Assembly: GCA_964484755.1 (NCBI GenBank)
Contig: CAZAGH010000002.1
Span: 24,783 to 88,782 of the forward strand
Direction of reading: 5' to 3'
Source: an uncultured Melioribacter sp.
GTDB taxonomy: Bacteria > Bacteroidota > Ignavibacteria > Kapaibacteriales > Kapaibacteriaceae
Length of the DNA stretch: 64,000 nucleotides
The translations under genes and the position numbers were made by a program. This document shows positions 10,314 through 59,374 of this stretch, piece after piece; positions within the stretch are counted from its first letter, which is position 1, and the number at the start of each line of letters is the position of its first letter. The notes beneath the pieces were generated by a model that had not been told where the DNA came from, made no database searches, and saw only the letters and a program-made list of their open reading frames with translations.

Positions 10314-10787
10314 ATGAGTACTACATTCACCTCCGACGAGCTGGCCTCGATCAGCGCTCTCAAAGCCAAGTATCCAGAACCAAAAGCTGCCATCATGCCT
10401 GTGCTGTGGATGGCTCAGAAGAAGTGGGGCTGGCTATCTGAGGATGTCATGAAGGAAGTTGCCAACGTAATGGAGCTCCCTTATGCTCACGTCCTCGGTG
10501 TTGCATCGTTTTACACGATGTACTTCAAGAAGCCAATGGGTCGCCACCATGTACAAGTGTGTACGAATGTCAGTTGTATGCTACGCGGCGGCGAGTCCCT
10601 CTATAAGCACGCTCAGCAGCGTCTTGGTATTGGGCATAATCAAGCCACGGCAGATGGTAAGTTCTCACTTGAAGAAGTTGAGTGCATGGGTGCTTGTGGT
10701 GGTGCTCCAATGATCGCCGTCAACGAGACATTCTACGAGAACTGCTCACAACAGCAATTGGATGCTGTGCTTGATGCTTGCCACTAA
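10314..10787 (+). CDS. NuoE-like thioredoxin-fold [2Fe-2S] ferredoxin (NADH dehydrogenase 24-kDa subunit family)
   Basis: Cys ligands in ...HVQVCTNVSCMLRGGE... and ...ECMGACGGAPM..., the classic NuoE/HoxF N-terminal pattern. 157 aa. It stands alone; no nuoF or nuoG is nearby. Confidence 0.7.
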   Translation: MSTTFTSDELASISALKAKYPEPKAAIMPVLWMAQKKWGWLSEDVMKEVANVMELPYAHVLGVASFYTMYFKKPMGRHHVQVCTNVSCMLRGGESLYKHAQQRLGIGHNQATADGKFSLEEVECMGACGGAPMIAVNETFYENCSQQQLDAVLDACH

Positions 10788-10796
10788 TCATCGGTG

Positions 10797-11405
10797 TTAC
10801 TCGACAACTGTCGCAGTATTCTGATAGATCAATCGAAACGTAAGATTTATGCGCGGGCCATGTGCCCGCGTTTTTTTTTCTATACCGTGAAGCCAGTGTT
10901 GTTGTGTGGTCCCTTTCATCACGAGAACACTGCCCGAGCTCAGTGGTATGCGCACGGGTGCAATGTCCCGCCGTGTCTTATGCTTGAGCACAAATGTTCT
11001 CGTTTCGCCAAAGCTCATAGATACAATTGTTGGATTCGAACCTAGCTCGGGTTCATCGTCTGCGTGCAACCCCATGCTGTCGCGTTCATCGCGATAGAGA
11101 TTTGCTAACACAGAATTGAATCTTGCATCCGTGATCTCCTCAGCTATCGATCGAAGTTTGAGCAGTGTCGTGGTCCACGGCTTAGCGCAATAGATTCGTT
11201 TGGAGTACATGTACTCTACGCCGTCATCACCTAGGAACTCAAGCAGACGTGGCTGGTACATTGTCTTACCAAACATGGTAATCGTGTCCTGTCTCCATGG
11301 AATCTCTGTGAACAGTGCGTTGAAATAGTCTGTGCTGGAAAGGGGCGATGAGGCCCCCTCAAATAGAAAAATTTCAGCATCGGGTATTGTCAATTGTATC
11401 GACAT
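10797..11405 (-). CDS. alkB: alpha-ketoglutarate/Fe(II)-dependent dioxygenase AlkB (alkylated DNA repair)
   Basis: The 2OG-Fe(II) oxygenase facial triad is present (LHADDE ... HWLHGI), together with the C-terminal RINLTFR motif. The second in-frame Met at 11405 (MSIQLTIPDAEIF) is taken as the start. Confidence 0.8.
   Translation of the reverse strand: MSIQLTIPDAEIFLFEGASSPLSSTDYFNALFTEIPWRQDTITMFGKTMYQPRLLEFLGDDGVEYMYSKRIYCAKPWTTTLLKLRSIAEEITDARFNSVLANLYRDERDSMGLHADDEPELGSNPTIVSMSFGETRTFVLKHKTRRDIAPVRIPLSSGSVLVMKGTTQQHWLHGIEKKTRAHGPRINLTFRLIYQNTATVVE
10851..10880 (+). terminator. rho-independent terminator for the nuoE-like gene, embedded in the 3' coding end of convergent alkB
   Basis: GCGCGGGC-CATGT-GCCCGCGC hairpin followed by T9 on the plus strand. 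On the minus strand the same bases encode ...KKTRAHGPR... of AlkB. Confidence 0.55.
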
Positions 11406-11441
11406 AATGTAAATTGTCCACATCTATTCAGAGGAGTATTC

Positions 11442-12209
11442 ATGCCTACCCGCGTTCAACTTGGAGTGCGCCATCGTCAGATTCGTGAGTCTTTGCTCAA
11501 AATGACCGTCCAAGAATATGCAAAAATGATGGATGTCAAGGTACCTACTGTCTACTCCTGGGAATCGGGCCGTACATCTGTTCCACAGAACGTACTGGCT
11601 ACACTTGAAAAGCGTTACGGTATATCATCGGGGTGGTTATTGACGGGATATGGCACTCCAATGTTGCCATCACATGTCAGTATAGATCCTGCTACTCAAA
11701 CCAAGAAATCCGTCATGGAACGTCTTGAAGAACACATCATGACTATCAAGCAGCTTGTAGACGAGTTGAAGCATCACTCGCCAGAGGTGATCGCCCCTGC
11801 CCGGCGGGAAAAAGGTTCGAATAAACATCGTATACCAATGTTAGCGTTGGGTGTCAGCGCTGGCCTTCCTACGGCTTCTGATGATACTATAGAACGCGAG
11901 ATCGATCTTGCGGACATGTTGCTCGAACATCCAGAGAGCACATACTTCATTCGGGTCGTTGGCGACTCAATGACAGATGCAGGTATCAGCGATGGCGATA
12001 CGCTGATCGTAGACTGCGCTGTGCAGCCTCGGGCTGGTCAGATCGTGATTGCCAAGGTCTACGGTGAGCTCACTGTAAAGCGATACCTTCAGGTCGACGG
12101 CCGTCCAATTCTGCGCGCTGAAAATCGCCGGTACAAAGACATTGCTATCACTGCTGACATGGACTTTACAATCGTAGGCGTCGTCCGGAACTGTATTAAG
12201 AAGCTATAA
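11442..12209 (+). CDS. LexA-like repressor: HTH_XRE DNA-binding domain fused to S24 LexA/UmuD autopeptidase domain
   Basis: N-terminal VQEYAKMMDVKVPTVYSWESGRTSVP is an XRE-type HTH. C-terminal GDSM ... KRY match the S24 Ser/Lys dyad. GAGGAG RBS at 11431-11436 precedes the ATG at 11442. The track ORF start at 11394 is an upstream extension. Confidence 0.75.
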   Translation: MPTRVQLGVRHRQIRESLLKMTVQEYAKMMDVKVPTVYSWESGRTSVPQNVLATLEKRYGISSGWLLTGYGTPMLPSHVSIDPATQTKKSVMERLEEHIMTIKQLVDELKHHSPEVIAPARREKGSNKHRIPMLALGVSAGLPTASDDTIEREIDLADMLLEHPESTYFIRVVGDSMTDAGISDGDTLIVDCAVQPRAGQIVIAKVYGELTVKRYLQVDGRPILRAENRRYKDIAITADMDFTIVGVVRNCIKKL

Positions 12210-12214
12210 TAACT

Positions 12215-12236
12215 CTACATTTTGTATAATTGCATC
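12215..12236 (+). promoter_or_regulatory. conserved element CTACATTTTGTATAATTG immediately 5' of the imuB-like start codon
   Basis: 17 of 18 positions match the element at the dnaE2 start (16886..16903). See findings. Confidence 0.5.
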
Positions 12237-13220
12237 ATGCTTTTAGCGATGCAATTATACGGCACGTATACAGACGCGTATTGGGATGCACTTGTAGATC
12301 GTATACACATCTGCACGCCTCTGATCAGTCTACCCTGTAGAGGCAGATTATACTGTGGACTTGACGACATACATGGTCTACGTGAACTTGTCTTATCACA
12401 TAAACTCCAGGCAGCTGTAGCCAAAACACGTCATGATGCTCTGCTGCAATCATGCCAAGCGACAAAGGGCCGAATTGATGCACATGATGGTTCGGATGAT
12501 GTACCGGTTTCGGTCCTGAAACGTATTATCGAGCTTGAGATCCAAGATCATGATATCGAGCGTCTTACCCTTTTCGGACTCTACACCATAGGTAGCCTCA
12601 GATCACTCACAGAACGCCACCTCTCAGCTCAGTTTGGTCATCGTGGAACAAAGCTCTACCAATTCCTGCACGAATACGATGATTCGCCACTGCCGTTCTA
12701 CATACCAGCACCATCAATAATTGTAGCTGAACGCTATGATGATGCACAGCAAGAGCCAGGGCCAATTTTTGAGTCATTAGAGCGCTCTGCACATCGTGCA
12801 TGCACATTACTTGGAACGCGATCTACTTGGCGTATAGAAGTCGCATGCCTTGATAAGGCAGATCAGCCTATGGCAGTGCGCGAACGTATTCTTCGATCAG
12901 GCTGCAATCTAGTCCAACAACTACTCACACACCTGCATGCATTGACACGCGACCTTCTGAAGCAGTCAAGACAGTGGTGGGGATTGCGCGTACGATTGGC
13001 TTCATTGGCACTGCCTGTAGCAGAACAAACTGCCCTGTTCTTGCCAGTAAAAGGTGCTCAAGATGTAGCACGTGAAATGATTCCACGCTACGGGCATGTC
13101 ATGAGAAAGATCACGATTCATAACCCATGGTCTATCATTCCAGAGGAGTATGCAAGCTGCACACCTATGATGCAGAGGACTATTGAAGGATCCTCAAGTT
13201 CAGGAGAGGAGCAGCAATGA
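12237..13220 (+). CDS. imuB: ImuB-like Y-family polymerase homolog (catalytically degenerate)
   Basis: The N-terminus MLLAMQLYGTYTDAYWDAL aligns with the ImuB LWLALHLP...LEAL entry. The DMDxFF catalytic Asp/Glu motif of active DinB/UmuC is absent. The thumb/HhH region ERLTLFGLYTIGSLRSLTERHLSAQFG is conserved. It is positioned with lexA-like and dnaE2. At 328 aa it is shorter than typical ImuB. Confidence 0.55.
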   Translation: MLLAMQLYGTYTDAYWDALVDRIHICTPLISLPCRGRLYCGLDDIHGLRELVLSHKLQAAVAKTRHDALLQSCQATKGRIDAHDGSDDVPVSVLKRIIELEIQDHDIERLTLFGLYTIGSLRSLTERHLSAQFGHRGTKLYQFLHEYDDSPLPFYIPAPSIIVAERYDDAQQEPGPIFESLERSAHRACTLLGTRSTWRIEVACLDKADQPMAVRERILRSGCNLVQQLLTHLHALTRDLLKQSRQWWGLRVRLASLALPVAEQTALFLPVKGAQDVAREMIPRYGHVMRKITIHNPWSIIPEEYASCTPMMQRTIEGSSSSGEEQQ

Positions 13221-13453
13221 AAAGTATTCATGAGCCCATAGACGTTGCACAGCAACAACAAACACCGTACATGATCTGTTGGCGTGGGGGGACGTACGCT
13301 GTCGAGCGCATCATTGATTCATGGACTAGTCGCGGACCATGGTGGGGCAACGACGAGATCCGGGGCTACGTACTACTGATCACCAGTTCAGGGGTGATGG
13401 AGATCTATCACAGCAATATTCGCGGATGGATGCTTTCTCGAATGTATGACTAA
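13217..13453 (+). CDS. 78-aa hypothetical protein, translationally coupled to the imuB-like gene
   Basis: The ATG overlaps the imuB TGA as ATGA. Trp-rich (ICWRGG ... GPWWGNDE ... RGWML). No recognisable family. Confidence 0.4.
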   Translation: MKSIHEPIDVAQQQQTPYMICWRGGTYAVERIIDSWTSRGPWWGNDEIRGYVLLITSSGVMEIYHSNIRGWMLSRMYD

Positions 13454-13468
13454 GCTCGATGCAGCTGA

Positions 13469-15955
13469 TCACGATGAATACTTCATACTCACCATGTTGG
13501 CCATGAGCTTCATCGCACCAACAACTCCTACAGGGAGCTGACGAAACAGTGACAAGGATGTGTAAATAAAGTTACCCTTGCCATATCGCGTGTGCAGTAT
13601 GGTTCCTCGCTGCGGCATCTCACCTGTATCATGCATTTCGAGCAACTCAGAGTATCTGGCATCGTATGGACCTGGATTGTAGACTGAACGCTCCTGAACC
13701 CATCCAGCGAAATCTGATGTCGTAATACGATTCGGATACTGCAAGAGCGGATGCATTGGAAGTAAAATGGAAACCTCGGCATCTTCTTCGGTAACACGAT
13801 TCCGCGATATCGTGAGTGGATATGGGGCTATATCAGTAGTACTGAGATCCTGTAATGTGTTGTATTGCATCACGAGTGTGCCTCCCTGCTCTACATACCT
13901 GAGCAATGATGGCATCAGATACTTCATACTCTTACGAGTGTTGATGACACGTATACCGAGCACGAGAGCATCATACGAGAGCAGCTCGGTAGTACGCAAC
14001 AGCTGGTCATCCGTGATTTCATCAACAACTACACCAAGACCACGTAAGAATTCCGGCGTTGACTCTCCAGCACCTGACAGGTAGGCAACTTTCTTTGCTG
14101 CAACCTTGATTGGTTCACTGATCACACGAACGGCAGCAGGTTGCAAATACTGCAACGTTGGAATGTGGTCGTAACTGATTGTAACAACCGTCCTATCGTG
14201 GATAACAGACCCTATCTGAAGCCCTACGCGTAAATCGGTCGTATACGACGTCGACACATCGATTGAAACAAGCGTATCAGTCTGCGCTCGCAGGCGTATT
14301 CCATCAAGCCGAGCAAGAGTACGCTCACCATCCTGAACAAGAAGCGAAGCCGATTCGACAGTACCATAGGCACGTATTCGTACAGAAATCGGTGCCTTGC
14401 CTGATGTCTGATAGACAACTGCCCTTGTAGGCTCGATGCTCACCACCGGTACTATGCGCAGTTCTTCAATGACATCGCCCTTGAGCGGGTCGAGCTTTTT
14501 GAAACTAACAGGCAGCGACAACACGAACGTCTCATAGCCAATGGTCATGATTACTGGAACTTCAAGAACCGGTGCACTAATGGAAGTTCCTAGTAAGAAC
14601 TCTGAAGAAAGACGAAACAGGCCGCCGGCGGGATCTTGTTCGAGCCAGTATGGCTGGCTAACTGCTGTACCATAGGGTACGGTAAATCGGGCCTCTGCGA
14701 TATGGGTAGAATCGTTCACACATGAGAAACCATCGATGATTGCACCACCAGGTAGGGATATCGGCAAAATGGATACAGACCTTCCGGCACGTGTTGTAAA
14801 TCGAATGGTAGCTCTGGCAGTGTCACCACTCGTCATGATCGGCATTGGTACTGATACATCCGCGGTAAGTCCGATGCAAGACGTGATAATCTTGTCGATC
14901 TCCTTGATCTTCAGCTGGTTCCAAAAAGGATCCCTTACTTCGTTGATCTTTCCGCGTATGTTTAGAAGTTTATCAAGTGATCGATGTGGCGCAAGCATAT
15001 CATAGGTTGCGATCACCGAGTCAATTGCTGCACCGATTGAGGTTGCACCAATACGATTCCACGTTGTATCGATACCGTCAAACAAACTGCGTTGCGGTGC
15101 ATCACCAACAAGGGTCTCAAAATACTCCGGCTGAACACCTGGTGTACTTGGCGTCCCAGCCCCCTGACTTCTATGAATGCTGCGACTGATTCCAGCCAGT
15201 TCGCCATATCCCATGCCAAGCAACGGATCGTATTGTCCAACGTCGATCTTGAACATTCCTGGTTTGATGGTGCTGCGATTACCGAAGCGAAATGCATTGA
15301 AGAGCAATCTTTTAGGCTTCCACGGCTCTTCTCCGGTAACTATGGGATTGGCACGCAGAATAGAATCGACACGGTCTTTGCTTTCCTTTGAGAGTGTCGA
15401 TACTCCATAACAATAGCGCACGGCCTCTTCGGTGATGATTGCTGAAGCACTGTGCTGACCATGCCCTGCCATGCTATCCTTAGGGAAACGGCATATCACG
15501 ACGTCGGGCCGAAACTCTCGAATCACGCGCACAACATCTGCGATGAGAATCACACTATCCCAGTGTTGAAAGGTCTCTTTCGGATTCTTTGAAAACCCAA
15601 AATCAAGTGCACGTGAAAAGAACTGTTCTGCACCATCAAGCTTGCGTGCAGCAAGCAACTCATGTGTACGTATGAGTCCAAGCGCAGCCCCCTGCTCTGA
15701 ACCGATAATGTTCTGTCCTCCATCTCCACGTGTGAGTGAGAGATATCCTGTCCTGATGTTACGTCCATTTGCTAGCCACGAGAGAAGTCGTGTATTCTCA
15801 TCATCGGGATGAGCTGCAACGTAGAGCACCGATGTCATTGATCGAAGCTGTTGCAGCTTACCATAAATTCTGGATGACGGTAAGGGGCGTATCTGCTGAG
15901 CAGATACCGTTACGACGCAGCAAACGCCAATCAGTGCAGTGAGCAGTGTGTGCAT
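13469..15955 (-). CDS. large PIG-L/LmbE-family deacetylase (Bacteroidetes ~830-aa type)
   Basis: Signal peptide, then VLYVAAHPDDENTRLLSWL (PIG-L AHPDDE motif). 828 aa. Confidence 0.65.
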   Translation of the reverse strand: MHTLLTALIGVCCVVTVSAQQIRPLPSSRIYGKLQQLRSMTSVLYVAAHPDDENTRLLSWLANGRNIRTGYLSLTRGDGGQNIIGSEQGAALGLIRTHELLAARKLDGAEQFFSRALDFGFSKNPKETFQHWDSVILIADVVRVIREFRPDVVICRFPKDSMAGHGQHSASAIITEEAVRYCYGVSTLSKESKDRVDSILRANPIVTGEEPWKPKRLLFNAFRFGNRSTIKPGMFKIDVGQYDPLLGMGYGELAGISRSIHRSQGAGTPSTPGVQPEYFETLVGDAPQRSLFDGIDTTWNRIGATSIGAAIDSVIATYDMLAPHRSLDKLLNIRGKINEVRDPFWNQLKIKEIDKIITSCIGLTADVSVPMPIMTSGDTARATIRFTTRAGRSVSILPISLPGGAIIDGFSCVNDSTHIAEARFTVPYGTAVSQPYWLEQDPAGGLFRLSSEFLLGTSISAPVLEVPVIMTIGYETFVLSLPVSFKKLDPLKGDVIEELRIVPVVSIEPTRAVVYQTSGKAPISVRIRAYGTVESASLLVQDGERTLARLDGIRLRAQTDTLVSIDVSTSYTTDLRVGLQIGSVIHDRTVVTISYDHIPTLQYLQPAAVRVISEPIKVAAKKVAYLSGAGESTPEFLRGLGVVVDEITDDQLLRTTELLSYDALVLGIRVINTRKSMKYLMPSLLRYVEQGGTLVMQYNTLQDLSTTDIAPYPLTISRNRVTEEDAEVSILLPMHPLLQYPNRITTSDFAGWVQERSVYNPGPYDARYSELLEMHDTGEMPQRGTILHTRYGKGNFIYTSLSLFRQLPVGVVGAMKLMANMVSMKYSS

Positions 15956-15974
15956 AGGTAGTGTTTTCGGTGAC

Positions 15975-16811
15975 TTACTTCAATGTCTTGAGCAGATCGT
16001 TGGCATACTTTGTGTACTCGGCTTCCGCTGATGTACCCTTTGCCAATTCGATAGTCTTCTGTGCCGCCTCGCGTGCAACATCAACATTGTTGAGTTTAGC
16101 TGCGATGCGCGCGCGAAGCAACTGGATCCAATAAGCCTTAGGGTTCTTCTCTGCGGCCTTAGTAGCGTATTCAAGAGCTTTGTCAAGTTGCTGATTCGTT
16201 TCATAGAGATACGATGCAGCTGGTTGATATGGGATTGTTGGATTGTTGATAGCTTTATCGATGGAAGTGAGCAGACGTTCCTGGTTACTGATCGCTACCG
16301 GGATTGATACATGCGTCTTTTCCCATGCAAGGTCGATGGTGCATGATGAGAATGCGATTGAACCGATTGAGATAGTAAAGGTCTCTACTGCTGACTCTAG
16401 TGCAACTGGTCGAACTTTTAGGCGGACAACATCATCTTTTGTGTCGTATCCAGTGGCTCCCCAATTACCGGTGTTCTTGTTGATGATTACTTCCCATTCC
16501 GACTTATCAGGTATTGTGTAGAGCGAATACGATCCAGCCTTGATATTCACACCGCCAATACGAACATCTTCACCAAAGGTGACCTTTGTGGCCGAGTTTG
16601 CTCCTGTGCGCCAGACAGTACCAAATGGAACAACATCTCCGAAGATTGTTCGACCACGCATCGAAGGCCTGCTATACACGATCTCGATCTTAGAAGTTGA
16701 TATGTCTTGAATGATCGTTGCGTTGGGACTCAGCGCTGGTAGTTTGAGTTCTTGTGCCGCAGTGACCTGAACGGCAAAAACAACGCAGAGAAGAAGATAT
16801 ACGTACTTCAT
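15975..16811 (-). CDS. DUF2911-like secreted protein with C-terminal TPR-like helical region
   Basis: Signal peptide; the 278-aa size and beta-rich region fit the DUF2911 family. Weak family-level call. Confidence 0.4.
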   Translation of the reverse strand: MKYVYLLLCVVFAVQVTAAQELKLPALSPNATIIQDISTSKIEIVYSRPSMRGRTIFGDVVPFGTVWRTGANSATKVTFGEDVRIGGVNIKAGSYSLYTIPDKSEWEVIINKNTGNWGATGYDTKDDVVRLKVRPVALESAVETFTISIGSIAFSSCTIDLAWEKTHVSIPVAISNQERLLTSIDKAINNPTIPYQPAASYLYETNQQLDKALEYATKAAEKNPKAYWIQLLRARIAAKLNNVDVAREAAQKTIELAKGTSAEAEYTKYANDLLKTLK

Positions 16812-16885
16812 GGGGCTTGCTTTATGGATGATGAATAGTGGCGTAGAAACGATGCGAAACTACGAGAAGTTTCGCGCATAGGTCT

Positions 16886-16910
16886 CTACGTTTTGTATAT
16901 TGTTTATACA
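16886..16910 (+). promoter_or_regulatory. conserved element CTACGTTTTGTATATTG plus perfect palindrome TGTATA-TTGTT-TATACA overlapping the dnaE2 ATG
   Basis: Palindrome at 16894..16910. Its last A is the A of the start codon. It shares CTACRTTTTGTATAWTTG with the imuB upstream element. Confidence 0.55.
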
Positions 16911-19900
16911 TGCAGTTTGGATCCCTACATACACGATCTCACTTTTCCTTTCTTGATGGTGCGTCATCTCCTGAAAGCATGGCCATAACAGCTGCACAGT
17001 TGGGTCACACCGCAATTGTGCTGACCGATGTAATGGGGGTGTATGGTGCTGTGCGATTGCAGAGAGCATGCAAGGCCGTTGGAATTCGTGCTCTTATGGG
17101 CGCTGATTTCATCATCCATAATGTTACCATAAGTGCAATAGCTCGAAACGCCGAAGGGTATCGTCAGATATGTAGTCTTGTTACTACTCTACGCGATGGC
17201 GGTCTGATTGAAGAGAATATCCAAAGAAGCCCCCTTACTGAATGCGTGATCATCATCCACGGATGCAATGTCGATCTAGATTTGCTTAGCAGGGTCTGCT
17301 CGATCCTACGCGGAGGACGCGAATGCTATCTTGGTATAGAGCACGACGGCAGACCCTGGGCCCTTCGAAGGGCACGCCGGGTTGTAAACCTGGCAGAATC
17401 TCTCAAGATCCCATGCGTGATTGCACAAGATGTTCGTTATGCTACTCGTGATGAATACGCAGCACACGATCTGATGGTATGCATTCGTGAAGGTATCACC
17501 ATTCATGAACCTCACCCACTGCGACCTGTCAACGATCGACAATGTCTACGCTCTGAGCAGGAAGTCCGAGAACTGCTCCCGTTTCCTGAGGCATTTGAAA
17601 ACGTAGACCTAATTCTTTCAGCATGCACATTTGACATACTGCCTGACAGAGTTACTCCCCCATCAGCTCGCATCCCCGAGCGTACTACTGCCAAAGAAGT
17701 GCTACGGGAACTTGCCATAAAGGGACTTGAGCGGCGTTATCAGAGTTGCGACGCATACACAATAGAGCGAGCATGGGCGCAGCTGGAACATGAACTTCGC
17801 GTACTAGATGAACTGGAGCTTTCGGATTTCTTTCTTGTAGTGAATGAGGTTGTAAGTGAGGCACGACGCCGCGGCATACGTTGTAGCGGACGTGGTTCTG
17901 CAGCAAACTCTATCGTAGCCTATGTTCTCAACATCACTGGCGTATGCCCTATTCGACATCATCTGTTGTTTGAGCGCTTCTTGCATAGGGGGCGCAAAGG
18001 AACGCCAGATATCGATGTTGATTTCGACAGTGATCGGCGCTCAGAGATCATTGCATGGATGGAAGAACGCTTTGGTCTGGCTCAGACAGCAATGACAGCT
18101 ACAATGATCATGTACCGGATCCGCATGGCGATCCGTGATGTAGCCAAAGCACTTGGCTTTCCAATGGAGACTGTTCGCAGTCTTTCCAAGAGTGTGCCCT
18201 CATGGACCAATCAACCAGTGGAATCATACCGTGATGCCTTAGCCTCTATCATAGGTCATATTCCGATGCTCAATATACTACTTCGCGGTGTTGAGCTTCT
18301 CATCGATCACCCACGACACCTAGGACAACACTCAGGAGGAATGGTCTTATCAAGCAAGCCACTAGAGATGCTTACACCAGTACAGCGATCTTCTAATGGT
18401 GTTGCTGTTGTTCAATTCGACAAAGACGACATCGAAGCTATGGGGCTTGTAAAGTTTGACGTGCTGGGACTTCGTATGCTCGCCTGCATCAGTGAAGCCG
18501 TTGAGCTTCTTGAAGTTTATCAAGGCATTGTTATCGACATAGATGAAGTACCGCTGGACGACCCTGATACATTTCAGCTTATTCGCAGTGGCAAGACACT
18601 TGGGATCTTTCAAATTGAATCGCAGGGGCAAATGCATCTGCTTGCTAAACATCAACCCGAGTGTTTCGATGATCTCATTACGGAAGTAGCACTGTTCAGA
18701 CCTGGTCCACTCCAAGGTGGAATGGTACATCCATACATCGCAAGACGAACAGGCAAGGCACCTGTCGAATATGTTCATCCCGACCTCGAACCGCTTTTAT
18801 CAGACACGTTAGGCATTGTTCTGTTCCAAGAGCAGGTGCTAGAGATCGCGCACAGGTTTGCTGGCATGCCGCTCGACGAAGCCGATGATTTTCGGTCACT
18901 TGTCTCAAAGAACAGAGACCGAGTGCTTATGGCTGCAATGAAGGATACATTCATCAATGGAGCTATGTCAAGGGGCGTAGATCATGCATCAGCCGAGCGC
19001 GTGTATGATATTGTATCACACTTTGTAGGGTATGGCTTCTGTAGATCTCATGCAGCGGCATTTGCAAAGATCGTCTATCAAAGTGCGTGGCTCAAGGCCC
19101 ATCATCCTGCTGCATACATGGCGGCGTTCATGCAGCATAGGCCTGGGATGTATAATCTTATGACACTGGAAGAAGAATCACGTCGATTTGGTGTTGATGT
19201 TCTTCTGCCGGACATACGTTACTCACACATCCGCTATACGATAGAGCAACACCAGAATCAGCGATGGTGCATACGCAAGCCCCTTACTTCGATTCGTGAT
19301 GTTAGCGAAGATGTAGCTCGTGATATCATCATCGAACGAGCAAAGTCAACCTTTGTAAGCGTCGAGGATTTCGTCCTCCGATTACCAGGTATTTCTCGAG
19401 ATGTTCTTGAATCAATTGCTCTTGCAGGCGCACTGACACATCTTGATGAAGATGTCCGACGCACGATATGGATTATAGGGGTTGTACGCCAGCGGCAACA
19501 AACATCTACCACAGGGAGCCTCTTTACCACAGCACATATTCATGAGACAGAGATACCGGAGCTTCCAGAGCTCAGGGCACAGGAACGCTTAGCCTATGAC
19601 TACATTACACACGGAGCAGCACGTGTGCATCCAATGACACTCTTTCGACGCCTTATGACTACGATGGAGATACGTTCGATTGAGACAGTACACAGAATGC
19701 CAATAGAAAAACCCATGGTTGTTGTCACGGCCGGTATTGTGATGCTTCGCCAGGCGCCACCTACTGCACGAGGGATGCTGTTCGTTACGATCGAGGATGA
19801 GACAGGCTTTTTGCAGTGCGTAGTGCCCCCAAATGTGCGTCAAGCATATGCTACAGAGCTACGGTCGGCAGCGCTAATGCTAAAAGGAACCGTAACTGGT

Positions 19901-20035
19901 ATCGGCTCATGGAGGAGCATTATGGTGCGTGAGGTTGTTGTGCTAAATAACATCATTGGTGGATACCACGGACACCTTTCCTATGCTGGTGGACGTGATA
20001 CGCTAGAAGTTGGCAGCGTAGTTAGTTTTGCATGA
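16910..20035 (+). CDS. dnaE2: error-prone DNA polymerase DnaE2 (ImuC)
   Basis: N-terminal PHP domain (LHTRSHFSFLDGASSPESM), Pol III alpha core, and C-terminal OB fold. 1041 aa, and it ends without the tau/beta-binding tail, as in DnaE2 rather than replicative DnaE. Confidence 0.85.
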   Translation: MQFGSLHTRSHFSFLDGASSPESMAITAAQLGHTAIVLTDVMGVYGAVRLQRACKAVGIRALMGADFIIHNVTISAIARNAEGYRQICSLVTTLRDGGLIEENIQRSPLTECVIIIHGCNVDLDLLSRVCSILRGGRECYLGIEHDGRPWALRRARRVVNLAESLKIPCVIAQDVRYATRDEYAAHDLMVCIREGITIHEPHPLRPVNDRQCLRSEQEVRELLPFPEAFENVDLILSACTFDILPDRVTPPSARIPERTTAKEVLRELAIKGLERRYQSCDAYTIERAWAQLEHELRVLDELELSDFFLVVNEVVSEARRRGIRCSGRGSAANSIVAYVLNITGVCPIRHHLLFERFLHRGRKGTPDIDVDFDSDRRSEIIAWMEERFGLAQTAMTATMIMYRIRMAIRDVAKALGFPMETVRSLSKSVPSWTNQPVESYRDALASIIGHIPMLNILLRGVELLIDHPRHLGQHSGGMVLSSKPLEMLTPVQRSSNGVAVVQFDKDDIEAMGLVKFDVLGLRMLACISEAVELLEVYQGIVIDIDEVPLDDPDTFQLIRSGKTLGIFQIESQGQMHLLAKHQPECFDDLITEVALFRPGPLQGGMVHPYIARRTGKAPVEYVHPDLEPLLSDTLGIVLFQEQVLEIAHRFAGMPLDEADDFRSLVSKNRDRVLMAAMKDTFINGAMSRGVDHASAERVYDIVSHFVGYGFCRSHAAAFAKIVYQSAWLKAHHPAAYMAAFMQHRPGMYNLMTLEEESRRFGVDVLLPDIRYSHIRYTIEQHQNQRWCIRKPLTSIRDVSEDVARDIIIERAKSTFVSVEDFVLRLPGISRDVLESIALAGALTHLDEDVRRTIWIIGVVRQRQQTSTTGSLFTTAHIHETEIPELPELRAQERLAYDYITHGAARVHPMTLFRRLMTTMEIRSIETVHRMPIEKPMVVVTAGIVMLRQAPPTARGMLFVTIEDETGFLQCVVPPNVRQAYATELRSAALMLKGTVTGIGSWRSIMVREVVVLNNIIGGYHGHLSYAGGRDTLEVGSVVSFA

Positions 20036-20793
20036 TGCAACGTATAGCACTGCTCATAGAATACGATGGAGCACGTTACGCTGGATGGCAACGTCAGCGC
20101 AATGGCATCACAGTGCAACAGCGCGTCGAGGAGGCATTAACAAAAACCTACGGACACACCTGCATCATCCATGGGGCCGGTAGAACCGATGCTGGAGTGC
20201 ACGCCTCAGGCCAGGTTGCCCATATTCAGCTCCATGAGCAGGCTCACAACATTCCTCTCGAGAAACTCCCAGTTGCATTGAACACGCGTCTCCCGTTTGA
20301 TGTACGCGTACGTGCTGCTACGAGTGTGCATGATGAGTTTCATGCACGGTTCAGCGCCATCTGGAGGGAATACATCTATACTATTACTACGTCGGATAGC
20401 GTGTTCCACAGGCATTATGCTTGGAATCCAGAGATACCGTTCTCTGCAGACACGCTACGTGAGGCACTTGAAGTCATGATTGGCGAACATGACTTCACGG
20501 CCATCTCTAAACACAATCCCGATACCAAATCCTACGTCTGCAACGTTGACACGTGCAGCCTGTCAATTGATGGATCACTCATGCAGATACGAATACGTGC
20601 CAATCGGTTTGTATATGGCATGTGCCGCGCAATTGTTGGCGTAGCAATGTCTGTAGCTCGCGGCCGAATGACCCCGAATGATCTGCGCGATCTTCTTGCT
20701 ACAAAACAACGACAAAAAGCTCCTATCATTGTCCCTGCTCACGGACTCAACCTTCACGCAATAGGATATGAATCAGAAATCTTCCCTCACTAG
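20032..20793 (+). CDS. truA: tRNA pseudouridine(38-40) synthase TruA
   Basis: IEYDGARYAGWQRQ ... GAGRTDAGVHASGQVAH (catalytic Asp in RTDAGVHA). The start overlaps the dnaE2 stop (ATGA). Confidence 0.85.
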   Translation: MMQRIALLIEYDGARYAGWQRQRNGITVQQRVEEALTKTYGHTCIIHGAGRTDAGVHASGQVAHIQLHEQAHNIPLEKLPVALNTRLPFDVRVRAATSVHDEFHARFSAIWREYIYTITTSDSVFHRHYAWNPEIPFSADTLREALEVMIGEHDFTAISKHNPDTKSYVCNVDTCSLSIDGSLMQIRIRANRFVYGMCRAIVGVAMSVARGRMTPNDLRDLLATKQRQKAPIIVPAHGLNLHAIGYESEIFPH

Positions 20794-24227: not shown

Positions 24228-24860
24228 CTATTTCAGGATGTGTCCTGTCTGAGCACACCAAAAGAGCAGGTCGACTTCATCCATATCGATTCCAATTTCC
24301 TGACAATACGATTGGAATGCCCGCTCCACTGCATGGTACTTGCTAGAAGTAGACACTGATGGCACGTCTTGATACACTCCACACCTGACAAGATTTGTCA
24401 GCAGGTGCCGGTCGATGATGGCAAGACCACGTCTGCCGATGTTTCGTAGAAAATGACTAGCCTCCTTGAGGCCGAAACCATTGACACGCTCCGCAAGTTG
24501 ATTACGCAATTCATAGATCGACATTGACTGCGCGGCAATCATCGCGTGTAACTCTTGCCAATGCTCGCGTGCCGCATGGAGCCGAGCATGCTTTGTGTTG
24601 TGAAATCGGATGTAGCATGCCTGATCGCGCAGCACGTGTAGCACATCCTGGCCCGTTCGAAGGAAATCAATGCTCTGCAGCTGCTGTTGCACGGCAAAGG
24701 CATGAACCGCGCTCGACTGAGGCGTGCATAGACAGAAGCATAGCTCGTAGAACCATTGTTCCTCTGGAACAGCCGCAAACTCAGACAATCTCTGACGTAT
24801 CGCTTGCTGCTGTTCACGGTAGAGATGCTCAAGCGTCTCTGGCAAGCGTTGCGCGTTCAC
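24228..24860 (-). CDS. ogg: 8-oxoguanine DNA glycosylase, Ogg2-type (HhH-GPD)
   Basis: ~210 aa. HhH-GPD elements GLKEASHFLRNIG and AIIDRHL (catalytic Asp). The size matches short archaeal/bacterial Ogg. Confidence 0.7.
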   Translation of the reverse strand: MNAQRLPETLEHLYREQQQAIRQRLSEFAAVPEEQWFYELCFCLCTPQSSAVHAFAVQQQLQSIDFLRTGQDVLHVLRDQACYIRFHNTKHARLHAAREHWQELHAMIAAQSMSIYELRNQLAERVNGFGLKEASHFLRNIGRRGLAIIDRHLLTNLVRCGVYQDVPSVSTSSKYHAVERAFQSYCQEIGIDMDEVDLLFWCAQTGHILK

Positions 24861-27028
24861 ACGAGCCCCTTACGCTTGCGCAGGAACCACTCGAGCGAGA
24901 ATGCTACGAGGGCTGCTGCCACGAACCACGGGAGGTGATACAAGGCGTGCTCCCGGTCAGAGGTGCGAACTATCGGGCGCAAGCGACTATCGTTCTTGAG
25001 CTTTTCAAGCAGTGACTCCACGTCGGCAGCTGGTGCGTATGCACCACCTGTTCTTTGTGCGAGTAATTGTAAAAGTCCACTATTTAACGTTAGTGCCGAC
25101 TCTTCGATACTTCCCTTACCTACGGTAAAACGGCCATTATCAGAGCCCAACTGCACTCCCCTTCGCGTAGCAGTTCCCTTGTACGCGTAATCTCCCGGTG
25201 GAAGGGAACCAATCGAAGCTGCATACTGTCCACCACCAAGGCTTGAGAACACAATGCGCCGTGTTCCGCTTGGCCCTGTGATGTCAACTGAAACCTCAGC
25301 ATCATCAACTACGGACAGTGTTTGATCAAGCACTGAGGCACTGAAACTGATCGTTTCACCAGCAGCGTAAAAATCATGAGAACTTCGGATGCGAATACGG
25401 TCATCGTCATCTTTAACGCTGAGCCACTTGACAGTGTTACCAATAAAGGACTGCAGGACGTCATCGACACTCGAACCGCGAGATACTGCCGGCCCCTGTC
25501 CAAGCAGCTTCCAGCGATAGAGTCCGTAACCAAGGATCGCTAAGGATCGTACCCCACCGCGCTCACTCTTGATGATAAGGGGCTCATCAATCGACGCAGA
25601 TCCTACCTTGAGGTCAGCAAGTACGGTAGCATTTTGTAAAGGTTCTACGAACAGCTCTGTGCGATAAATTGGCGGAAGCTGATTCCATGTATCAACGTCT
25701 GACTCCTCACCTCGAATCTTCATGACAGGATCGGCAGATGCTCGAGCAGAAACATCGGGCACTACGAGAATCTCCTGAGCTCTGTTGCTGCGAACCGCAA
25801 ACGGAATGGCGTCCTGGAATCGTGTAAGTTTAGAGTAGTCCGTCTGGAAAGATGGGATGAACAGCAATGACGTGCGCTTAGCCTTTTCTGCTAGTCGTTC
25901 AAGAGCATCATTGGAAGATCCTGCTGTTGGGTAGCCAATCAAAACGATTGCCTGAACCTCTTGCAAGGAAGCTGCATCAATTGGACCTTCATAAAACGAA
26001 ACAGCATCACGCTGAATGCGTGTAACAACCTCAACTGTTGGGTCATATTCTAAGGCCGACTTAACGAACGTGACATCTGGACTGGCAGCGCCTGCCACGA
26101 GAAGGATTTTACGTTTATTTTTTTGCACACGGACAAACGACTGAGCGATGTTATTCGCACGCGTAAACTCCTGCTGTTGTGTAACGAACTCAGCAGTAAG
26201 CTTATGTATTCCATCGGACGTTGGCGTCCACGTAAACGAAACCCGACGTGATGCAGGACCTCGTGTTAACAGCACCTGCTGCCGCGCGACCACCGTATTG
26301 TTATCCTTCAGGACTACCTCTGCACTGCCATCGACCATACCGTTGTATTCGAGATCAACGATAATTGGCATTGGCTGCTGCACGATCGCAACTCCTCGAG
26401 AGTACAAACCAACCACGCGTGCATCACTCGGAGCTACGGTATCGCCTACACCGATGGTGTACAATCCAAGGCCAGTCTTTTCTGCAACGTAGACAGGTTG
26501 CTCGCCTGAGTTGTAGTTGCCGTCTGTAACAAGGACCATGGCCGCATAACGTACATTCTCTGTTGTGTTACCAACGAACCGTATAGCCTTGCCAATATCC
26601 GAGCGAAATCCATTCAATCGGAGAGAATCGACAGTACCCAGTGTAAAGGGGCGAACCTGCTGGTCAAAGACGAGAACATCTGCCTTGTCACCAAGATTTT
26701 GTGTGATTTTCGAATAGAGCTCCTTGACAACTGCACTACGATCAACGCTGCGATCCTTCATTGCCATTGAGCGTGAGACATCTATCGCAATTGCAATCCG
26801 AGGCTCAACAGTATCGGATTGCCGAATACGCAGTAGTGGCTCAAACAGGGTAAACAACAACAGTGCAAGGCCAATCGCACGCAGAACTGCAAGCAGTCCT
26901 CGATCGCCTGAGGAAAGAGCTGGAGTTGTTCTTCTGTAACTAAACCATGCAACAGCCGAAGCAATGATGGTTAAAACGAGGTACATCCACCATGAACCAG
27001 CACCAAATGCAAATCGAAGTGATTCCAT
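24857..27028 (-). CDS. membrane-anchored von Willebrand factor A (VWA) domain protein, BatA-like but greatly extended
   Basis: Two N-terminal TM helices, then a VWA MIDAS motif (IAIDVSRSMAM) and a ~450-aa extracytoplasmic region. A C-terminal TM (LPWFVAAALVAFSLEWFL) is followed by a basic tail. Confidence 0.55.
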   Translation of the reverse strand: MESLRFAFGAGSWWMYLVLTIIASAVAWFSYRRTTPALSSGDRGLLAVLRAIGLALLLFTLFEPLLRIRQSDTVEPRIAIAIDVSRSMAMKDRSVDRSAVVKELYSKITQNLGDKADVLVFDQQVRPFTLGTVDSLRLNGFRSDIGKAIRFVGNTTENVRYAAMVLVTDGNYNSGEQPVYVAEKTGLGLYTIGVGDTVAPSDARVVGLYSRGVAIVQQPMPIIVDLEYNGMVDGSAEVVLKDNNTVVARQQVLLTRGPASRRVSFTWTPTSDGIHKLTAEFVTQQQEFTRANNIAQSFVRVQKNKRKILLVAGAASPDVTFVKSALEYDPTVEVVTRIQRDAVSFYEGPIDAASLQEVQAIVLIGYPTAGSSNDALERLAEKAKRTSLLFIPSFQTDYSKLTRFQDAIPFAVRSNRAQEILVVPDVSARASADPVMKIRGEESDVDTWNQLPPIYRTELFVEPLQNATVLADLKVGSASIDEPLIIKSERGGVRSLAILGYGLYRWKLLGQGPAVSRGSSVDDVLQSFIGNTVKWLSVKDDDDRIRIRSSHDFYAAGETISFSASVLDQTLSVVDDAEVSVDITGPSGTRRIVFSSLGGGQYAASIGSLPPGDYAYKGTATRRGVQLGSDNGRFTVGKGSIEESALTLNSGLLQLLAQRTGGAYAPAADVESLLEKLKNDSRLRPIVRTSDREHALYHLPWFVAAALVAFSLEWFLRKRKGLV

Positions 27029-27037
27029 AGCCGGACA

Positions 27038-27769
27038 TTACCTCAAGGAGGAAGGGGCAAGAACGAGGATGCTCTGTGCCACCAATAGACTCGTGGTGAA
27101 AAAGAAGGCTACCTCTTCCCACGGGAGAACACTCGCAACATATACACCCGTGATCTGTGAGGAATCAAAAAACCATATTCCCTTCCGTACCGCCCAGACA
27201 TCGGCAATCGAGAGGATCCCACCAATTGCGATGGTCGAGATAGCAATCTCCGGGATGCGAGCGATCAAAATGTTGTACCCAAACATCCACTGCAACACGA
27301 TCACTGGCAGAAACCAATAAAACAAGTGCCAGGCATAGCTTAGGTACCGTCGGTTTGCACGCCACTGTTTTGAGAGCAAACCAGCGGTTAACCATAGTGC
27401 AATGAAGAGCCCCATGACCATCAGATTACTCTGAGAAAAGTCCACATCAGCGACCCGATCAAGAGGCCGAAGAGCACACAGAGACATCGTGAGGAAGGTA
27501 ACCTGAAGGGTTTGAAGCACAAAAAAAGCAATCTCCTCGATGGGTAAACGGTCGATCCTGAACAGTAGACGATCGTCTGGGAAATCCCAGAGTCGCCTAT
27601 GGACGGCCCAGTTATCCCACGGAAAGGTAAAGACAATGACGACCACACAGAGCGCGAATATCGGCAAGGCAATGGGTGCCTCTGGCCCGACAAACATCCA
27701 GAGCCCGGCACAGAGAACAAGCAGGGGCAATGTCACCCGGTAATGGAAACCGCGATAGGTCATGGTCAC
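27038..27769 (-). CDS. lycopene cyclase domain protein, fused two-repeat CrtYcd type
   Basis: Polytopic membrane protein with two copies of the PxEE-xFF lycopene-cyclase-domain signature (LPIEEIAFFVL and LPWEEVAFFFT). Confidence 0.55.
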   Translation of the reverse strand: MTMTYRGFHYRVTLPLLVLCAGLWMFVGPEAPIALPIFALCVVVIVFTFPWDNWAVHRRLWDFPDDRLLFRIDRLPIEEIAFFVLQTLQVTFLTMSLCALRPLDRVADVDFSQSNLMVMGLFIALWLTAGLLSKQWRANRRYLSYAWHLFYWFLPVIVLQWMFGYNILIARIPEIAISTIAIGGILSIADVWAVRKGIWFFDSSQITGVYVASVLPWEEVAFFFTTSLLVAQSILVLAPSSLR

Positions 27770-28713
27770 AGCGCCGAAGACACGGAAAGACGGTGCAGAA
27801 CGGCAGAGGCTCCGAGCACGTTCAGTGCATAATCGACATTCAACAGTGTAGTACGGATTCCAAGCCCTGCACTGAAACCGCTCAATTGGGTCGACACACT
27901 CACCGCAGACGTGTTGCGAAGGGAGTTGTCATAGGCAACGCGGAATTGCACGTATTTGCCAACGTAGAACTCGCCACCGATGCTGAAGTTTGAGAACCGT
28001 GATGCAAAGTCTTCGACGTCGTCGGTAAGATGATTGAACGATGCATTGATAAGAAGTGGAAGACCACGTAATCGATGATTGATACCTATACGCATGTCTA
28101 CTGGCAAGCGATCGCTGGTGCCGTCATAGGTTGAGAGTTGTGTTCCGAGATTGACGATGCTGATTCCGATGTTTGTTCGTTTAGCCGGAAAACGGAACAA
28201 CAAACCAGCATCTAATGCAATCGCGGTTGAACGCATATCGGTGAGCGACGAGTGCAGGATTTTTCCCGTTACGCCATACGCGATCAGAGTGTCGAATTCC
28301 TTTGCATAGGAAACACCCAGCGAGACATCAGAGGCAGTAAAGCTACCAGTAATCGTACCATCGATTGTCGATCGCGAAAAATCACCGTAGTTGGCGTATC
28401 CAATTGTGATGGCACCCATGCCGTCTGCAATGTCAGTAGAGTATGTCAGCAGTCCTGCATTGATATCCAAGACATGCTTGATAAACGTACCGTGAATGTT
28501 TGAAGAATCAGTTGTGGCCAGTCCTGCGGGATTCACAACTACGTTATTGGCGTCTCCCACGAGAGCGACCGTAGAGCCCCCTAGCGCGGCTGCTCTGCTG
28601 CTAATGAGGCTGCGCATGAAAGGGAAAATCGATGCCTGCTGTGCTTGCAGATCTACAGAAGCAGAAATGAGTGCTGCAACAACGACGACCAGGGGGATGT
28701 ACGATTTGATCAT
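27766..28713 (-). CDS. porQ: type IX secretion outer-membrane beta-barrel, PorQ/PorV family
   Basis: Signal peptide, then the family-typical start ...AAALGGSTVALVGDANNVVVNPAGLA... (compare PorV/PorQ ALGGAxxAxxxDAxAxxWNPAGL). Sequence is beta-strand-rich; 315 aa. Confidence 0.55.
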   Translation of the reverse strand: MIKSYIPLVVVVAALISASVDLQAQQASIFPFMRSLISSRAAALGGSTVALVGDANNVVVNPAGLATTDSSNIHGTFIKHVLDINAGLLTYSTDIADGMGAITIGYANYGDFSRSTIDGTITGSFTASDVSLGVSYAKEFDTLIAYGVTGKILHSSLTDMRSTAIALDAGLLFRFPAKRTNIGISIVNLGTQLSTYDGTSDRLPVDMRIGINHRLRGLPLLINASFNHLTDDVEDFASRFSNFSIGGEFYVGKYVQFRVAYDNSLRNTSAVSVSTQLSGFSAGLGIRTTLLNVDYALNVLGASAVLHRLSVSSAL

Positions 28714-41672: not shown

Positions 41673-42197
41673 ATGGAACACACAACACAACAAGAAGACA
41701 ATCACCTGGAGCAAGACCAATCTCAGCAGGAGACAACGGACCTCCATGCCGAGCTTGCCCAGTGGAAGGAGCTTGCGATACGTCGGTTAGCCGAAGTAGA
41801 GAACATCCGCCGTCGCACCAACCTTGAAAAGCAAGAATTGCTCATGCATGCTGCTCAGCATACGATCACAAAAATGCTCCCAATCCTTGATGATCTCCAT
41901 GCTGCCGTCGAGGCTTCGCGCACAACACGCGATGCGGAGTCACTGATACAGGGCATCGAGATGATCTACACAAAGACCGTCAAGATCTTTGAAGAGTCTG
42001 GCGTGCAGGCCATAGAGGCGGCATCTGGGGAGCAGTTTGATGTAGAACGCCACGAAGCTCTCATGCACACACCGTCGGAGCATCCCGAAGGCTCTGTTAT
42101 TCAAAACGTACAGCGTGGATACCTGCTGCACGATAAAGTATTGCGACATGCTAAGGTCATCACATCAGCCGGGTCTGCGGCACAGAAGGGCGAGTAA
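41673..42197 (+). CDS. grpE: nucleotide exchange factor GrpE
   Basis: Acidic N-terminus, a coiled coil ([21 protein letters not shown]), and a C-terminal beta domain. 174 aa. Confidence 0.85.
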
Positions 42198-59292: not shown

Positions 59293-59374
59293 AAGAGCAA
59301 ATCTACGGCCTTTGCGCGGAGCATGAACGCCAGTGCTATATTGTACGGGGCTTATTATCACATGGAGAGATTCA

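Follow-up and report, generated by a model that had tools for sequence, protein, structure and literature searches.

The stretch analysed here, a segment of 64,000 nucleotides of contig CAZAGH010000002.1 from an uncultured Melioribacter sp. (referred to below as the window), carries a set of genes around a catalytically dead Y-family protein and a DnaE2 polymerase, headed by a putative repressor gene and linked by a shared upstream sequence element. We consider it likely that this region encodes a damage-inducible, ImuA-less mutasome with a split ImuB and its own XRE/UmuD-type repressor, which would act on dyads overlapping the -10 hexamers of its target promoters. The genes were defined from a map of the open reading frames (ORFs) of the window and from independent gene calls on the identical contig, combined with Pfam and NCBIfam profile searches of the encoded proteins. 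In order of position, the features are the following:

10797..11405, minus strand: alkB-like gene for an AlkB-superfamily 2-oxoglutarate (2OG)-Fe(II) dioxygenase of 202 amino acids (aa), a length also given by the independent gene call; Pfam 2OG-FeII_Oxy_2, E 3e-38
11387..11415, plus strand: sigma-70-like repressor promoter TTGTCA-N17-TAAATT with a degenerate putative operator; promoter-like match and motif match
11442..12209, plus strand: repressor gene, 255 aa; Pfam HTH_3 (helix-turn-helix, HTH) and Peptidase_S24
12213..12230, plus strand: shared element O1, composed of the dyad CTAC-ATTTT-GTAT (12215..12227) and the -10 hexamer TATAAT (12225..12230)
12237..13220, plus strand: imuY-like gene, 327 aa; Foldseek and hhalign homology, no Pfam match
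12255..12271, plus strand: candidate second dyad TTATAC-GGCAC-GTATAC; match to a position weight matrix (PWM)
13217..13453, plus strand: imuB-C gene, 78 aa, DUF6504; Pfam DUF6504 and hhalign
13469..15955, minus strand: PIG-L-family deacetylase gene, 828 aa; Pfam
15975..16811, minus strand: DUF2911/TPR gene, 278 aa; Pfam
16884..16901, plus strand: shared element at dnaE2, composed of the dyad CTAC-GTTTT-GTAT (16886..16898) and the -10-like hexamer TATATT (16896..16901)
16910..20035, plus strand: dnaE2, 1041 aa; Pfam PHP, DNA_pol3_alpha, finger, HHH_6 and OB domains
20032..20793, plus strand: truA, from the ORF map and gene calls; its start is overlapped by the dnaE2 stop

A preliminary description of this DNA, made from the letters alone, had read the region as an atypical SOS mutagenesis module. 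The ORF map agrees with the positions it gave and the genes it listed are real, with these amendments: the repressor gene starts at the ATG at 11442 and not at the TTG of the ORF list, and the 78-aa ORF at 13217..13453 had been overlooked. The alkB-like and repressor genes diverge as described, with start codons at 11405 and 11442 and 36 bp between them, and dnaE2 is indeed displaced, starting 3.69 kb after the stop of the imuB-like gene (here imuY), behind the minus-strand PIG-L and DUF2911 genes. For comparison, related loci were collected and numbered from L001 onward, and the ratio of nonsynonymous to synonymous substitutions (dN/dS) was computed for all cassette genes against L006. Every cassette gene is under purifying selection, with ratios of 0.02-0.12. 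GC content is flat throughout the region, and an Rfam search of 10500..20500 gave no match.

The product of 12237..13220 matches no Pfam model, IMS included. A PDB sequence search with its profile returned marginal Y-family matches only, so that the link to this polymerase family needed a fold search and intermediate relatives: Foldseek with an AlphaFold2 (AF2) model gave Y-family polymerases for all top PDB matches (MsDpo4, E 5e-10, probability 1.0), and hhalign against Deinococcus deserti ImuY yielded a probability of 99.6% (E 1.6e-23). Close homologues form 13 clusters among 5.8 billion proteins, all of 313-329 aa, while a profile search of 1.84 billion representatives found 567 relatives, the distant ones 370-420 aa long and N-terminally extended by ~60 residues, some of which pass the IMS or IMS_C Pfam models. 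Aligned with relatives of 378-417 aa, ImuY keeps beta1, after which ~57 residues of the fingers region are deleted; the thumb and little finger are retained. The position of the catalytic SIDE motif, mapped via a full-length relative aligned to a solved DinB, is R-G36-R37 in ImuY, and no acidic residue occurs in beta1 or the first 12 residues. The earlier claim of a short ImuB-like protein (~330 aa) without the catalytic acidic motif therefore holds as far as it goes, and the objection raised with it, that the product might be an active DinB, falls with the missing carboxylates; its shortness, however, stems mainly from the C-terminal domain being encoded by the separate 78-aa ORF. By these alignments, ImuY is doubly shortened: ImuB-C has been split off, and the fingers region has been lost in this lineage. 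Towards the C terminus, Q264 and F268 of a QxxLF motif are invariant; behind them, a helix (274-285) and a strand (290-294) are predicted, with P283-R-Y285 invariant, an order that matches M. smegmatis ImuB, where QLPLW precedes RecA-NT. The reading frame is intact in more than 15 species, as for the rest of the cassette, at constant length, and imuY has a dN/dS of 0.12. Drastically reduced ImuBs described elsewhere still keep the thumb, little finger and C-terminal motifs, which are said to contact DnaE2 and the clamp (PMC12926913).

The start of the 78-aa ORF overlaps the imuY stop (ATGA). Its product passes Pfam DUF6504 (29.2 bits; cut-off 24.2) and aligns with D. deserti ImuB-C (Deide_1p01890, annotated DUF6504) at 98.3% probability in hhalign (E 2.5e-14). 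A tblastn search with this ORF against plasmids found 'DUF6504 family protein' genes between 'Y-family DNA polymerase' and dnaE in Deinococcus. The AF2 model is all-beta with six strands (predicted local distance difference test, pLDDT, 79) and has no fold match in the PDB, which agrees with the account of ImuB-C as a beta-barrel without close PDB relatives (PMC12926913). Direct homology to the C terminus of canonical ImuB was considered and set aside: against the Cupriavidus protein, the ImuB-C profile gave no significant similarity, and neither hhalign nor Pfam could detect a relationship. The assignment is made because of the D. deserti protein and the literature on these modules; a literature search on DUF6504 itself found nothing. 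The ORF is present in every related locus and has a dN/dS of 0.022.

DnaE2 carries intact PDIDVDF and KFDVLGL motifs. Among NCBIfam models it scores highest with that for error-prone polymerases, NF004225 (832 bits, under the cut-off of 939), ahead of the DnaE model at 693. It is 36% identical to D. deserti DnaE2 over the full length, and its closest DnaE2 relative from outside the lineage, at 42.8% identity, is encoded on a plasmid of Abditibacteriota in the arrangement lexA-x-PolY-DUF6504-dnaE2. The dN/dS of dnaE2 is 0.08.

The canonical cassette, (lexA-)imuA-imuB-dnaE2, occurs in Proteobacteria and Actinobacteria, and split forms are known. In common with it, the locus described here has an S24 protein as putative damage repressor, a dead Y-family scaffold with a putative clamp motif and then a putative RecA-NT-like motif, an ImuB-C module and a catalytic DnaE2; it differs in lacking ImuA and in having ImuB-C as a separate polypeptide, and the similarity of the ImuY profile to canonical Cupriavidus ImuB is marginal (E 0.027) and confined to the thumb region. 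The combination of an inactive PolY (iPolY), a standalone ImuB-C and DnaE2 without ImuA has been named the 'Kyrpidia tusciae-type' variant (PMC6511836), and the same architecture corresponds to the DnaE2X-iPolY-ImuB-C-RecA module (PMC12926913). By gene content and homology, the array repressor-imuY-imuB-C-dnaE2 is thus an already described, ImuA-less type of cassette. In D. deserti, ultraviolet (UV) mutagenesis needs ImuY, DnaE2 and RecA, and that genome has no imuA (PMC8072749); damage-inducible expression and ImuY/DnaE2-dependent mutagenesis have been shown only for D. deserti and D. ficus (PMC8072749). The D. deserti cassette has the same order of repressor (LexA), inactive Y-family protein (423 aa), DUF6504 protein (80 aa) and DnaE, without imuA in the locus, and the same overlap of the imuY stop and imuB-C start. 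Unlike in the window, its regulator is a winged-helix LexA and not an XRE-HTH/UmuD-type S24 protein; both the D. deserti and the Abditibacteriota cassettes carry LexA_DNA_bind or LexA-family regulators. ImuY of the window is also ~95 residues shorter (327 versus 423 aa), having lost the fingers region, and its operon is split by two unrelated minus-strand genes, with dnaE2 under a putative control element of its own. Further differences are the divergent alkB-like gene of the window and the chromosomal position of its cassette at a fixed locus. As to ImuA, its reported absence stands: no RecA-fold gene lies within the 64-kb window or in ~25 related loci, and the window also contains neither recA nor a canonical lexA. 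All four features called atypical in the preliminary description are therefore present, whereas three of them are not new, given a known ImuA-less class with split ImuB and the well-known split cassettes.

What remains as the most original part of the locus is the repressor. The protein consists of an XRE/CI-type HTH (~residues 12-66), a variable helical linker and an S24 autopeptidase domain, in which A140-G141, the predicted cleavage site, and S176 and K213, the predicted catalytic dyad, are invariant across homologues. The N terminus matches HTH_3 (XRE) in Pfam and not the winged helix LexA_DNA_bind, in line with the earlier claim of a non-LexA XRE-HTH-S24 repressor. That claim needs sharpening with respect to the S24 half, which is of the UmuD type: it passes the NCBIfam UmuD subfamily model NF007621 (124 bits; cut-off 110; residues 1-115 of 115 of the profile covered), and the protein stays under the cut-off of the NCBIfam LexA model (81 bits versus 111). 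BLASTP aligns the S24 domain with E. coli UmuD' at 45% identity (E 3e-29); the UmuD' sequence and those of two validated non-canonical LexAs come from the supplementary S24 alignment of PMC8565304. The predicted cleavage fragment G141-L255, with 115 aa, is UmuD'-sized. Across related loci, identity is 92-99% for the S24 domain, 66-95% for the HTH and 39-86% for the linker, compared to 64-90% for DnaE2, 40-85% for ImuY and ~55% for TruA at the same loci, making the repressor the most conserved protein of the locus. Its recognition-helix region, VPTVYSWESGRT, is invariant, and its dN/dS is 0.024.

The repressor family comprises ~80 homologue clusters. In genomes of Kapabacteria, Ignavibacteria and Chlorobi, the repressor gene is always the first of the cassette, and Chlorobi-like and Kapabacteria-like genomes, among them a complete genome of 2.99 Mb, have a contiguous array of repressor, iPolY (378-384 aa), DUF6504, DnaE2 and truA in the same neighbourhood as in the window. 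No umuC, the gene of the Pol V partner, is found in the window or the related loci, and the neighbouring Y-family gene is the dead ImuY. The label 'translesion error-prone DNA polymerase V autoproteolytic subunit', which NCBI records attach to relatives of the repressor, is misleading. Two observations concern the wider family. At loci L026 and L027 of Kapabacteria genomes, a 42%-identical homologue (protein P0249) has no polymerase gene nearby and adjoins the gene for a 1241-aa VWA/beta-propeller protein and a HipA_2 gene, indicating that the family is not always tied to a mutasome cassette. Protein P0250 (228 aa; from an 860-bp ENA contig) joins a LexA_DNA_bind winged-helix N terminus to a C-terminal half near-identical to the UmuD-type S24 domain of the repressor, and reflects either a chimeric assembly or a natural swap of domains.

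The second central feature is the shared upstream element, by which the preliminary description had tied dnaE2 to the imuB-like gene, and the element is real. The window holds two exact copies of the 16-mer CTCTACRTTTTGTATA, at 12213..12228 and 16884..16899, which precede the ATGs of imuY and dnaE2 by 8-12 nt, and none of 100 shuffled sequences matched as often. At O1, the right dyad arm doubles as a perfect -10 hexamer, TATAAT, 6 nt ahead of the imuY ATG, and at dnaE2 the -10-like TATATT lies 8 nt ahead of the ATG. A third copy, GAC-ATAAT-GTA (11401..11415), is located at the promoter of the repressor gene itself, overlapping the spacer and the -10 hexamer (TAAATT at 11410..11415); the position of this putative operator is conserved in all 18 related loci. 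These loci and the window together form the 377-kb set used for motif scans. In this set, the 15-mer KACRTWWTGTAWRWT, allowing at most one mismatch, is found upstream of the repressor gene, imuY and dnaE2, with the dnaE2 copy present only in loci where dnaE2 is separated from imuB-C; the sole other place is inside the dnaE2 coding sequence of L001 and L002, which encode the same protein. The imuY sites of L004, L006, L012 and L013 are perfect palindromes of the form TTATAC-N5-GTATAA. The repressor promoters of wider relatives bear two tandem perfect CTAC-N5-GTAG/T dyads, CTACATTTTGTAT with CTACATTTTGTAG or CTACATTTTGTAG with CCACAATTTGTAG, and none lies ahead of their iPolY genes. From these comparisons the predicted consensus of the element is CTAC-N5-GTAG with an A/T-rich spacer of 5 bp. 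A PWM scan of the 64 kb gave three strong sites only (29.8, 28.0 and 20.9 bits). A fourth near-match (42098..42113; 13.6 bits), antisense in grpE, lies within the range of shuffled sequences and was put down to chance, and an interpretation of the element as the Bacteroidetes -7 box (TAnnTTTG) was rejected, as the register is one base off in all copies.

Codons 7-12 of imuY contain a second dyad (12255..12271), with a centre-to-centre distance of 41 bp from O1. In the nine loci that encode the N terminus MQLYGxYT, the arm bases at synonymous positions (TTA, TAC, TAT) are kept in 8-9, the spacer and flanking codons vary, and synonymous sites are otherwise saturated, so that this dyad may be an auxiliary operator. 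The divergent intergenic region between the DUF2911 gene and dnaE2 holds a separate feature: a perfect inverted repeat with an 8-bp stem, GCGAAACT-N6-AGTTTCGC (16854..16875), ~10 bp upstream of the putative dnaE2 operator and conserved with small changes in all insertion-bearing loci. Although flagged as terminator-like on the minus strand, the repeat precedes the DUF2911 start, and it may serve as a binding site for a regulator or as a leader hairpin of the DUF2911 and PIG-L genes.

The alkB ATG (11405..11403) lies inside the putative operator of the repressor promoter. Since this site covers the start codon, alkB transcription would have to begin within the 5' end of the repressor gene, and because of the overlap, co-regulation of alkB through the divergent region is plausible: bound repressor could block alkB. 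The alkB product can be placed no more narrowly than in the 2OG-FeII_Oxy_2 superfamily; it has visible HxD...H and RxxxxxR residues and passes neither AlkB equivalog model (TIGR00568, 36.8 bits, cut-off 231; NF011930, 31.8 bits, cut-off 267). The gene has a dN/dS of 0.07; L001-L013 have it next to the repressor gene, and L014-L018 and L021-L025 lack it. The 3' end of its coding sequence contains, at 10851..10871, a strong hairpin on the plus strand that resembles a terminator, with seven GC pairs out of eight and a T9 tract behind it, 64 nt past the stop of the nuoE-like gene (10314..10787), whose terminator is apparently embedded within the convergent alkB-like coding sequence.

The distribution of these features in related genomes allows the history of the locus to be outlined. 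The preliminary description had proposed a synteny comparison of the PIG-L/DUF2911 insertion and the missing imuA; the lack of a RecA-fold gene proved general among the related loci, whereas the insertion is found in one derived clade only. The PIG-L/DUF2911 pair is absent between imuB-C and dnaE2 in L004, L005, L012-L018 and L021-L025, in Deinococcus and on the Abditibacteriota plasmid. In a neighbour-joining tree of DnaE2 rooted with Deinococcus, the insertion-bearing loci form one clade (100 of 100 bootstraps) nested among lineages with contiguous cassettes, a topology by which the pair is a single derived insertion. We propose that the cassette began as a single autoregulated operon, as in L021-L025. 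The fingers region of ImuY would then have been deleted and the dyad/-10 element would have arisen between the repressor gene and imuY (L014-L018), after which alkB would have been set divergently against the repressor promoter (L004, L012, L013). In the last step, two minus-strand genes would have been inserted and a copy of the dyad/-10 element would have appeared at dnaE2 (the window, L001-L003 and L006-L011). This copy would keep dnaE2 in the regulon.

How might the locus work? A repressor dimer most likely binds CTAC-N5-GTAG-type dyads and thereby occludes the -10 hexamers of three promoters: its own, where it would also cover the alkB start codon, that of imuY-imuB-C, and that of dnaE2. 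The motif at the regulator's own promoter is as expected under autoregulation. RecA*-stimulated self-cleavage at A140-G141 would remove the repressor, upon which the three promoters would fire. ImuY would serve as a dead scaffold, probably docking on the beta clamp via QxxLF and on RecA via the RecA-NT-like motif; ImuB-C would be a small beta-barrel subunit that probably binds DnaE2, and together with the ImuY thumb it would hold DnaE2, as in the AlphaFold models of PMC12926913. DnaE2 would act as an active error-prone polymerase for mutagenic bypass. In its core, the earlier reading of a damage-response mutagenesis module is upheld: the S24 repressor is not a LexA, ImuA is missing from the window, the Y-family protein is short and dead, and dnaE2, though displaced, shares a cis element with the rest. 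Several points weigh against this picture. The score of the repressor-promoter site was reached in 1 of 20 shuffles, with a PWM built partly from the window's own sites. The left arm of the dyad varies (TAC versus GAC), and since the right arm is the -10 hexamer itself, its conservation could partly be promoter conservation. No recognisable -35 element precedes imuY. Neither uvrC (57421..59430, minus strand) nor the gene for an Ogg-type 8-oxoguanine glycosylase (24228..24860, minus strand) has an upstream dyad; with these two repair genes lacking the motif, a regulon, if one exists, may be purely local rather than a general SOS regulon. On the protein side, the ImuY model is of moderate quality (pLDDT 65.7), its clamp and RecA-NT motifs were assigned from position and pattern, and the statement that imuA and a canonical lexA are absent has the 64-kb window as its scope.

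The element could also be a promoter and nothing else, a strong -10 of leaderless transcripts or of an alternative sigma factor, with the S24 protein regulating elsewhere or nothing here. The exact TATAAT/TATATT of the right arm at 6-8 nt from the ATGs fits such an explanation, as does the loosely conserved left arm, and dnaE2 needs a promoter in its 98-bp intergenic region, where the element is the sole -10-like one. A -10 hexamer, however, needs no complementary left arm at a fixed distance of five bases, several sites are perfect 6+5+6 palindromes with matches on both strands, and the second of the tandem perfect dyads at the repressor promoter of wider relatives is not a -10. Moreover, the motif occurs in no other promoter across the 377 kb and is present at that of the regulator, so that we regard a pure promoter as unlikely. 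Nor does it seem that the 255-aa protein is primarily a UmuD-type polymerase accessory subunit with an incidental HTH, despite the UmuD cut-off it passes, its identity to UmuD' and the NCBI names of its relatives. The HTH_3 domain is too well conserved for this, with an invariant recognition-helix region; dyads are found at its own and its neighbours' promoters, umuC is missing, and a UmuD homologue that carries an HTH at its N terminus, UmuDAb of Acinetobacter, is a known repressor (PMC12242105). We hold this to be very improbable.

Much the same small weight goes to the notion of a cassette in decay, whose truncated ImuY and detached dnaE2 would be relics that no longer serve a mutasome. An ImuY that has no fingers region and no Pfam match, an interrupted operon and the small number of close homologue clusters would suit it; the purifying selection on all cassette genes argues against decay, as do the intact frames of constant length, the retention of the thumb, little finger and C-terminal motifs known from the reduced ImuBs of PMC12926913, and the gain of a regulatory element at dnaE2 after the split. 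Most improbable of all is a mobile-element origin of the locus, in which the 255-aa protein would be a prophage repressor of the CI type. Its XRE HTH and S24 architecture is that of phage CI/C2 repressors and the closest DnaE2 outside the lineage is plasmid-borne, but the chromosomal neighbourhood (ppiD-like, two SQS_PSY genes and nuoE-like on one side, truA and an M48 peptidase gene on the other) is common to all relatives, including the complete 2.99-Mb genome; there are no flanking phage or integrase genes, GC content is uniform, and the S24 half is UmuD-type and not CI-type.

An extension of the repressor-operator model deserves mention, even if we think it rather doubtful: the repressor may be bifunctional, a single cut at A140-G141 both freeing the operators and releasing a 115-aa UmuD'-like fragment that joins ImuY, ImuB-C and DnaE2 as a polymerase manager. 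The UmuD threshold that the S24 half passes, its extreme conservation and the cassette linkage in nearly all relatives examined are compatible with this idea. Against it weigh that ImuY is not UmuC, that the 42%-identical homologue lies away from polymerase genes, and that the demands of dimerisation, cleavage and RecA* contact may suffice to account for how conserved the S24 domain is. If true, one proteolytic event would derepress and also activate the mutasome, and a UmuD-derived, non-LexA S24 protein would have been recruited as an SOS-type regulator in a further, independent instance in the Ignavibacteria/Kapabacteria/Chlorobi lineage.

We would further like to place the repressor into the context of known regulators. 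UmuDAb of Acinetobacter is likewise a UmuD-type S24 protein with an added N-terminal HTH (PMC12242105, PMC11332147). It acts locally, keeping its own gene and genes of error-prone polymerases repressed until RecA* promotes its cleavage and so inactivates it (PMC12242105, PMC11332147). By analogy, UmuDAb is the nearest functional analogue of the repressor. However, the targets of UmuDAb are umuDC (Pol V) operons, and it depends on the co-repressor DdrR, whereas the repressor of the window has an HTH_3 (XRE) domain by Pfam, followed by a long helical linker, and heads an ImuY-ImuB-C-DnaE2 cassette. The non-canonical LexA family reported as exclusive to Bacteroidetes (Sanchez-Osuna et al. 2021, PMC8565304) is similar in layout: it too joins an HTH_3/CI-like N terminus to an S24 domain bearing an Ala-Gly site and a Ser/Lys dyad. 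It also has short-dyad operators with a rigid, A/T-rich 5-bp spacer (CTAA-N5-TTAG, GGA-N5-TCC, TTAC-N5-GTAA) and a link to error-prone polymerase genes, and the window has CTAC-N5-GTAG-type dyads, predicted in silico, at the promoters of the repressor and of the error-prone polymerase genes. Yet BLASTP of the repressor against the C-terminal domains of the validated members WP_025606010 and WP_075324850 gave E-values of 36 and 6.3, the repressor ends 2 residues past the S24 core without their extra C-terminal helix, and a broad SOS regulon like theirs is not evident in the window. By these comparisons, the repressor lies outside the published Bacteroidetes clade. A literature search on LexA and Ignavibacteria returned a polymerase survey only. 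An XRE/UmuD-type repressor with a predicted operator, a minimised ImuY and a copy of the operator after an operon split were not found in the searchable literature.

Elsewhere in the window, three consecutive ORFs (723, 243 and 315 aa; 24857..28713) and one of 657 aa (55542..57515) have no Pfam match at E 1e-4, and an ORF of 2258 aa (31013..37789) is also present, all on the minus strand. On the plus strand, a VWA-domain gene comes after one for a bpMoxR AAA+ ATPase (59333..62257), a pairing that is typical of MoxR-vWA-beta-propeller ternary systems according to the Pfam description.

Among ImuA-less ImuY-ImuB-C-DnaE2 mutasomes, only those of Deinococcus have been shown to work, and computational surveys regard this type as a possible ancestor of the widespread ImuABC system; here, the module turns up as a stable part of the chromosome in Kapabacteria, Ignavibacteria and Chlorobi-like bacteria. 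The minimised ImuY, without a fingers region and without a fused ImuB-C, shows which parts of the scaffold are dispensable. In the place of LexA stands an XRE-HTH/UmuD-type fusion with a predictable operator, which would join HdiR, UmuDAb and the Bacteroidetes non-canonical LexA among the few non-LexA S24 regulators of error-prone polymerases. The split cassette would also provide a natural example of regulatory compensation: an insertion cut off dnaE2, and a copy of the operator/-10 element then appeared ahead of dnaE2.

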